From Squalus acanthias (lineage: Eukaryota): DNA of 64,000 nucleotides. Under the pieces are notes generated by a model, which worked only from the letters and a program-made list of their open reading frames with translations, was not told the origin of the DNA and did not search any database. The translations under genes and the position numbers were made by a program. Of this stretch, positions 20,175-20,636 are shown one piece after another. The stretch's first letter is position 1. Each line of letters starts with the position of its first letter. The stretch is taken from contig JASTWF010000098.1 of NCBI GenBank assembly GCA_030390025.1, positions 744,001 through 808,000 on the forward strand, in the 5' to 3' direction.

Positions 20175-20636
20175 AGCTAGCATAGTGGTTATGTTACTGG
20201 GCTAGTAATCCAGAGGCCTGGACTAATGATCCGGAGACGTGAGTTCAAATCCCACCATGGCAGTTGGGGAATTTAAATTCAGTTAATTAAATAAATTTGG
20301 AATAAATAAAAAGCTAGTATCGGTAATAGTGACCATGAAACTACCAGATTGTCGTAAAAACCCATCTGGTTTACTAATGTCTTTTAGGGAAGGAAACTTG
20401 TCGTCCTTACTCGGTCTAGCCTATGTGACTCCAGACCCACAGGAATGTGGCTGACTCTTAACAGCCCTCTGAAATGGCCCAGCGAGACACTCAAGTCATA
20501 TTAAAAAAACTGCTATGATGGACTGCAGTGGTTCACGAAGGCGGCTCACCACTACCTACTCAAGGGCAATTAGGGATGGGCAATAAATGCCGGCCTTGCC
20601 AGAGACGCCCACATTCCGTGAATGAACAAAACAAAA
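20175..20636 (+). mobile_element. Short tRNA-headed SINE sharing both 5' head and 3' tail with the 9758-13203 LINE
   Basis: 20178-20496 aligns with 9768-10072; 20518-20636 aligns with about 13085-13203. Confidence 0.9.

Follow-up and report, generated by a model that had tools for sequence, protein, structure and literature searches.

Introduction

How does a short retroelement come to carry both the head and the tail of a single long one? Short interspersed elements (SINEs) are thought to be built from a small-RNA head and the tail of a long interspersed element (LINE), or from such a head joined to an already deleted LINE. The question is raised by a stretch of 64,000 nt of Squalus acanthias DNA (assembly GCA_030390025.1, contig JASTWF010000098.1, positions 744,001-808,000 of the forward strand), referred to below as the window. 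It holds a short element in which the head of an elasmobranch Zenon LINE is fused straight to the 3' end of Zenon (20178..20636, + strand), together with a full-length, decayed Zenon copy bearing a tRNA-like head, recognised by its domains and by published consensuses (9760..13202, + strand). The short element is probably a non-autonomous internal-deletion derivative of the tRNA-headed Zenon, and we infer that capture of the head came first and the deletion later.

Repeat matches inside the window were obtained by self-BLAST, accompanied by ungapped identities and by local scores compared with 50 shuffles for each part. Contigs from four public runs of four organisms, three of DNA type and one of RNA type, were also compared with the window; contig depth in these runs is no measure of copy number, and the joints between non-adjacent positions discussed below come from 15 listed of 8,471. 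The Zenon consensuses in the supplement of PMC13343379 were compared over their first 400 nt. Scans of viral contigs and of metagenome contigs returned no related locus.

Two short elements composed of the ends of one LINE

The short element at 20 kb lacks about 7 nt of its 5' end and comprises a tRNA-like head (20178..20263, + strand; A box 20178-20188, B box from 20243), a head body (20264..20518, + strand) that ends in the decayed 16-nt block closing the heads of long copies, and a Zenon 3' end (20519..20636, + strand) in which the last codons of the open reading frame (ORF), the 3' untranslated region (UTR) and the A-rich tail correspond to 13087-13203 of the long element. In self-BLAST the head (20178-20493) matches 9768-10070 at 84.0% over 319 columns, and the tail (20520-20636) matches 13087-13203 at 84.6% over 117. 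Without gaps, 269/301 positions of the head, 87/93 of its tRNA-like part and 99/117 of the tail are identical to the long copy. The local scores of four short-copy parts against the long element reached 395, 139, 250 and 89, compared with best shuffles of 30-34 (50 each). An earlier note on this DNA had described the short copy as head plus tail of the long element and had read the end of the LINE frame as FKKAAHHHLLKGN-stop; both descriptions hold, with the start of homology corrected to 20178.

The divergence of the head does not differ significantly from that of the tail (P 0.18). Between them, the 24-nt spacer 20496-20519 scores 18 against the window's long copy, where shuffles score 21, and by eye it resembles the 16-nt end-of-head block of public contigs, a block that has decayed in the window's long element. 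The element is short, has a LINE-derived 3' end and is without coding capacity; at the same time, both of its ends are homologous to one autonomous LINE whose middle is gone, the feature of a short internally deleted element (SIDE).

The second short element (62013..62345, + strand) is truncated at its 5' side at the B box, and its head is joined to the Zenon tail from 13093. Self-BLAST aligns its head (62013-62254) with 9827-10072 at 80% and its tail (62272-62334) with 13093-13155 at 89%, which bears out the claim of a third copy with the same layout, except that this copy is without an A box and its head is of a somewhat different type. The window holds these 2 short copies, and a low-stringency search of it found no further piece of the coding region of the long element.

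The long element as an elasmobranch Zenon

The long copy opens with a head module (9760..10088, + strand) consisting of an A box (9768-9778), a duplicated arm (9787-9828), a B box from 9833, a body and a decayed end block (10073-10088). An A-rich/(AAT)n linker (10089..10110, + strand) leads from the head to the coding frame; seven published consensuses have a variable A-rich linker at this place, and it may represent the tail of whatever element was captured. A single frame for an apurinic/apyrimidinic endonuclease (APE) and a reverse transcriptase (RT) follows (10087..13140, + strand), interrupted by stops and frameshifts, with matches to Exo_endo_phos_2 (E 5.7e-08) and RVT_1 (E 8.2e-05 and 3.1e-08). 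There is no ORF1, for which the approximately 330 nt preceding the APE frame would leave insufficient space. The 3' ends are A-rich in both the long copy (13193-13202) and the 20-kb copy (20625-20636), and in one public run (X17) a loose contig end at 13183 shows an A run.

A foreign repeat (11378..11630, no strand assigned) lies within the long copy and replaces about 20-26 nt of Zenon; contig joints from 11371-11378 to 11631 bridge it in all four runs. Relatives of this repeat occur at 2994-3259, 7362-7624, 19276-19478, 37475-37683, 46895-47102, 47188-47343 and 62410-62541.

The long element inserted into a Deu-type SINE, of which the left part (9461..9757, - strand) ends in one copy of the target duplication (9753-9757) and the right part (13203..13392, - strand) begins with the other (13203-13207). 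The two flanks rejoin to a sequence present in eight other copies of this SINE. The duplication is about 5 nt long, and each of its copies is one base off the commonest empty site, which is found in 7/8 copies. The insertion begins two bases ahead of the first base of the tRNA-like head. Because the insertion edge sits at the start of the head, inside the host SINE, head and coding region came in as one insertion.

By its structure and 5' sequence the long element is an elasmobranch Zenon LINE of the CR1 group. By eye, 122 of its first 131 nt are those of SquAca_Zenon-1. Its best named full-length relative is lepidopteran. The protein matches of the window, at 73-75% in Heterodontus and 66-74% in Rhincodon, point to a cartilaginous fish as host. 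The clade RTE/RTEX was entertained and dropped after the Zenon consensuses matched. According to the available parts of PMC13343379 (GBE 2026), Zenon is defined by a missing ORF1 and a poly(A) tail, and elasmobranch Zenon had previously never been deposited in a repeat database; the element of the window agrees with that description in its 5' 400 nt, its length of about 3.2-3.3 kb, its single APE-RT frame, its lack of ORF1 and its A-rich end.

The head as a fixed part of shark and ray Zenon

The supplement of PMC13343379 provides ten Zenon consensuses. Within the first 400 nt, all seven from elasmobranchs, representing five species (CarCar, HypSab, RhiTyp, ScyCan and SquAca-1 to -3; 2,886-3,314 nt), start with the tRNA-like head and continue with the same body, followed by an A-rich linker and then by the sequence found at the beginning of the coding region in the window, while none of the three others, two from hagfish and one from a coelacanth, carries the head there. 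Four head motifs occur at least 7, 8, 5 and 7 times in the supplement text. For three species the same supplement gives 612, 1,419 and 2,313 long Zenon copies per genome. These consensuses establish that the head is the fixed 5' end of the elasmobranch Zenon family.

The public runs were consulted on the same junction. Contigs spanning 10075-10082, where head meets ORF, number 33-86 in each of the three DNA-type runs and 6-7 in the RNA-type run, and they carry substitutions that spell the end-of-head block where the window copy is decayed; in run X12, 684 loose ends at 10072 run on into this block and an A-rich stretch. Depth at 10075-10082 is nevertheless only about 1/1000 of head depth. This counts against a head shared by the whole family and would be expected if long copies were sporadic SINE-LINE chimeras, or a chance LINE insertion into a SINE. 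However, the dip coincides with a place where the window copy differs from the contig consensus at 8 of 16 bases, and depth falls lower still at the private deletion of the window copy near 9911. Sporadic chimeras, which the earlier note had named as an outcome that would undo its proposal, are contradicted by the seven headed consensuses from five species unless those are assembly artefacts, and this explanation is barely credible.

Proteins do not allow the link between head and ORF to be demonstrated: a search with the N-terminal 51 residues gave no match at E 0.01, and a head-derived peptide was present in 0/160 fetched proteins.

The nature of the head

The A box at 9768 and the B box at 9833, with their counterparts at 20178 and 20243 in the short copy, make up two of the five box pairs found in the window, compared with a mean of 0.03 in 200 shuffles. 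The boxes are 65 nt apart in these two heads and 45 nt apart in the other three pairs. The wider spacing results from a 21-nt tandem duplication of the anticodon arm, at 20197-20217/20218-20238 in the short copy and 9787-9828 in the long one, the two units being identical at 16 of 21 positions in either copy. The galeomorph consensuses show a similar extra stretch, which is shortened in the ray consensus, within the 400 nt compared. Against the Rfam tRNA model, whose gathering score is 29, the short head scores 21.9 bits (E 0.013) and the long head 15.8 bits (E 0.5); in the alignment of the long head, the loop of the first arm would correspond to an AGT (Thr) anticodon. The head is likely derived from a tRNA.

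The body behind the tRNA-like part was compared with known SINE domains. The earlier note had likened its central block to a Meta-type domain, and this resemblance was not borne out. The 13-nt Meta core motif, with up to 2 mismatches, matches the window twice, against a chance mean of 1.14, and none of the three heads; by eye, the published 66-nt Meta consensus (supplement of PMC7245038, and PMC4824008, as available) has only a few short words in common with the body. In MetaSINEs the 66-nt domain stands right after the tRNA part and is 61-86% identical to the consensus. One short motif per domain, a limited test, gave the Deu motif at 6 places, all within SINEs of the host type, the V motif once (40817), the CORE motif once (2653) and the UCON3 motif nowhere, with none of these matches in the heads. 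In the body Rfam recognised neither a ribozyme nor any other family that is credible, and folding stability is not unusual (z -0.08 for the head; 0.42 and -0.71 for the 3' ends). Two short body words within 9925-9990 recur in the 5' UTR of lepidopteran Zenon and of its derivative Persaeus and are too short to judge; if that likeness is real, the body would be an old 5' UTR belonging to the LINE itself, and the capture would have been limited to the tRNA part.

The origin of the short forms

The favoured course of events would begin with an ORF1-less Zenon gaining the tRNA-headed 5' module of about 330 nt before the shark-ray split. Capture by the LINE is the first step in any model, because the head is absent from non-elasmobranch Zenon. 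Most simply, the RT would have switched templates, leaving the LINE RNA for a SINE-like one at the latter's A-rich 3' end, which would fit the A-rich linker that follows the head; template switching is discussed in the available passages of PMC4824008. Once the head had become the fixed 5' end, the coding middle of about 3 kb would be lost through a template jump during reverse transcription or through repair at short homologies. The resulting head-plus-tail elements would retain both boxes, A and B, to be transcribed and the 3' end of Zenon to be recognised by its protein, and could spread as SINEs without a separate step of head capture. Since the 20-kb copy bears the head of the local long subfamily, the deletion would have recurred or been refreshed.

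Several observations speak for this course. The distance between the heads of the 20-kb and long copies is K 0.116, compared with 0.176 and 0.178 to the 62-kb copy, and by eye the long and 20-kb copies have in common three differences from the closest published consensus; the 20-kb copy matches the local long head, and the 62-kb copy does not clearly do so. The short forms fall into several junction classes, their tails starting at 13087 (20 kb), 13093 (62 kb), 13130, and 13105 or 13112 (run X3). Among the joints listed, one from 10069 or 10072 to 13130 recurs in all four runs with 1-25 contigs each, and at the joint 10069-13130 two bases fit either side in two runs. The available passages of PMC6740152 describe the lepidopteran Zenon as repeatedly yielding internally deleted derivatives, named Persaeus. 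Splicing was rejected as a source of the short forms, the skipped parts being without a GT start and AG end by eye.

Other observations weigh against this derivation. A target-site duplication was recognised at neither short copy. The short forms make up a nested set, with only about 9 nt between the junctions of the two window copies, and a single origin followed by later trimming fits the junctions too. The variation of the mapped tail breakpoints speaks for deletion, whereas the 5' breakpoints cluster, all lying at most about 20 nt from the end of the head. Private sites are more numerous in the 62-kb head, though not significantly so (22 vs 14 vs 12, P 0.17). The junction of the 20-kb copy is not among the 15 of 8,471 joints listed, which leaves it a candidate family. 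The Rfam tRNA scores are below threshold and ARAGORN finds no tRNA.

The clustered 5' breakpoints and the nesting would be natural if the SINE came first, that is, if a tRNA SINE with a Zenon tail had already arisen by the customary route and the LINE then captured the head of this partner, perhaps with repeated recapture or conversion afterwards. Such an origin would also suit the state of the 62-kb head, which by eye is common to the galeomorph and ray consensuses over the part compared and missing in the local long copy; the excess of head depth over ORF-start depth in the three DNA-type runs, depth being no copy number; and the frequent exchange of SINE modules described in the available parts of PMC7245038. 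However, the heads of long and short forms are matched by subfamily, and this order would demand either a switch into the interior of the SINE, precisely at the border of head and tail, or repeated conversion. Moreover, in the long form the head is followed by the A-rich linker and not by the Zenon tail of the short form, and head and linker are conserved in the 5' ends of all seven long consensuses. A SINE-first origin is regarded as rather unlikely.

The missing target duplication and the absence of the 20-kb junction among the joints listed raise a further explanation, in which the 20-kb copy stands alone, having either lost its middle in place after inserting or arisen as a single aberrant insertion; its head is also as near to the long copy as heads of same-age copies would be. 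A second short copy with a nearly identical junction within the same 64 kb, and another head-to-tail joint recurring in all four runs from four organisms, make this improbable. With regard to internal deletion of the LINE, then, the two alternatives offered by the earlier note, a SINE derived by deletion and a LINE that captured a head, are probably successive steps, with the capture preceding the deletions; deletion is best supported for the 20-kb copy.

Possible transcription of the LINE by RNA polymerase III

A head with A and B boxes on a coding LINE suggests a further possibility, for which only tentative confidence is appropriate: elasmobranch Zenon may be an autonomous coding LINE that RNA polymerase III (Pol III) has transcribed, using a captured tRNA promoter, since before the split between sharks and rays, with T-run terminators purged from its coding strand, and its deletion products may be SINEs complete in one step. 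Once the foreign insert is taken out, 3,178 nt of the long element remain, whose sense strand contains 1 stretch of at least four T, located at a local lesion; six further LINE fragments of the window, 4,947 nt together, contain 15 (P 0.004). TT occurs at 0.75 of expectation in the long element, and NTT codons are rarer than predicted from the other T-ending codons (42/92 vs 150/203, P 0.029; controls P 0.70). One run of four T occurs in the 20-kb copy, at 20382, and none in the 62-kb copy. In a single decayed copy, such scarcity of T runs is a weak hint of a Pol III-made LINE.

Against this possibility, P is 0.35 when the shuffles preserve dinucleotides, runs of C are scarce too, TT is just as rare in one of the six control fragments, and these fragments are older and not independent. 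Six copies of the Deu-type SINE, presumed Pol III templates, hold 10 runs of four or more T in 2,513 nt. As for the translation of such an RNA, inspection by eye shows no conserved AUG that is in frame and lies upstream of the endonuclease frame in the seven published 5' ends, as far as the compared 400 nt extend. A conserved ATG upstream of that frame lies in another frame, and the ATG of the window at 10087 falls in the decayed junction.

Comparison with known elements

The short element most closely resembles Persaeus, the SIDE of lepidopteran Zenon, which in the passages available from PMC6740152 likewise consists of the 5' end joined to the last codons, 3' UTR and poly(A), with varying breakpoints and repeated internal deletion. 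Persaeus is described there as being without tRNA homology and without a Pol III promoter, whereas the shark short element keeps a tRNA-like head; because its retained 5' end is this head, the shark derivative would count as a SINE. It resembles a SIDE in its origin and a SINE in its structure.

Bov-tA, CoeSINE4, WALLSI2 and SINE2-1_EBu likewise combine a tRNA head with LINE 5' and 3' parts (PMC5786205, PMC7245038, as far as available). In SINEs of the Bov-tA type, however, the head joins an element that had undergone deletion beforehand, and no head is present on the autonomous LINE, while here the autonomous LINE itself is headed. The available text of PMC5786205 attributes ORF-less bipartite derivatives only to RTE, Ingi, Vingi and R2; it also mentions RTE-1_DAn and relatives, LINEs of another clade with a tRNA-like sequence matching many SINE2, in a passage that does not give the position and function of the tRNA-like part. 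In SolRTE (10.1101/2022.11.04.512097) the LINE 5' end was switched by template switching, as proposed here for the capture, and the available passages present no long-lived coding family whose fixed head is of Pol III type. The 5' gain by template switching in chimeras of small RNA and L1 is, in the passages seen, similar.

Variants of Bov-B with SINE-derived ends are a further parallel.

The main text of PMC13343379, as available, leaves the head and the short derivatives undescribed, with 0 mentions of tRNA, promoter, polymerase III or non-autonomous and SINE appearing once, in a reference title; the element itself is no different. The openly readable literature, which leaves Repbase, Dfam and closed papers uncovered, yielded no tRNA-headed Zenon and no such short element: the available parts of PMC5499810, PMC3747384, PMC11481361, PMC5753468, PMC3531059, PMC13295347 and preprints contain no account of it, a search of the supplement of PMC5786205 gave no match, and a full-text literature search with four window motifs returned no paper.

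Other repeats in the window

The Deu-type tRNA SINE that hosts the long element is abundant (9461-9757, 13203-13392, 14977-15416, 30369-30847, 52738-53218 and others), with copies about 79-90% identical; it is probably SacSINE1-like, a name taken from the available part of PMC5499810. At 40703-40832, A and B boxes 45 nt apart are followed by a match to the V-domain motif, probably marking an HE1-type V-SINE. LINE fragments with RT similarity, used as controls above, lie at 33906-35883 (- strand), 61002-61637 (- strand), 63125-64000 (+ strand) and 41145-41590 (- strand). Tandem arrays occupy 8121-8616, 25590-26016, 32492-33781, 37814-38548, 43258-45157, 48246-49032 and 57626-57946; the 69-70 nt unit of 48246-49032 recurs at 57626-57946 and partly at 27084-27149 and 28161-28209.

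Implications

With an autonomous LINE that is headed across sharks and rays, one deletion would be enough to make a SINE, and the line between SINE and SIDE would vanish. Long copies number from hundreds into the thousands per genome, so that assemblies already available allow a direct test of which event came first. Should the head drive Pol III over 3.3 kb, elasmobranch Zenon would be a protein-coding retroelement made by a polymerase that normally produces short non-coding RNA, and how such Zenon RNA gets translated would become a testable question.
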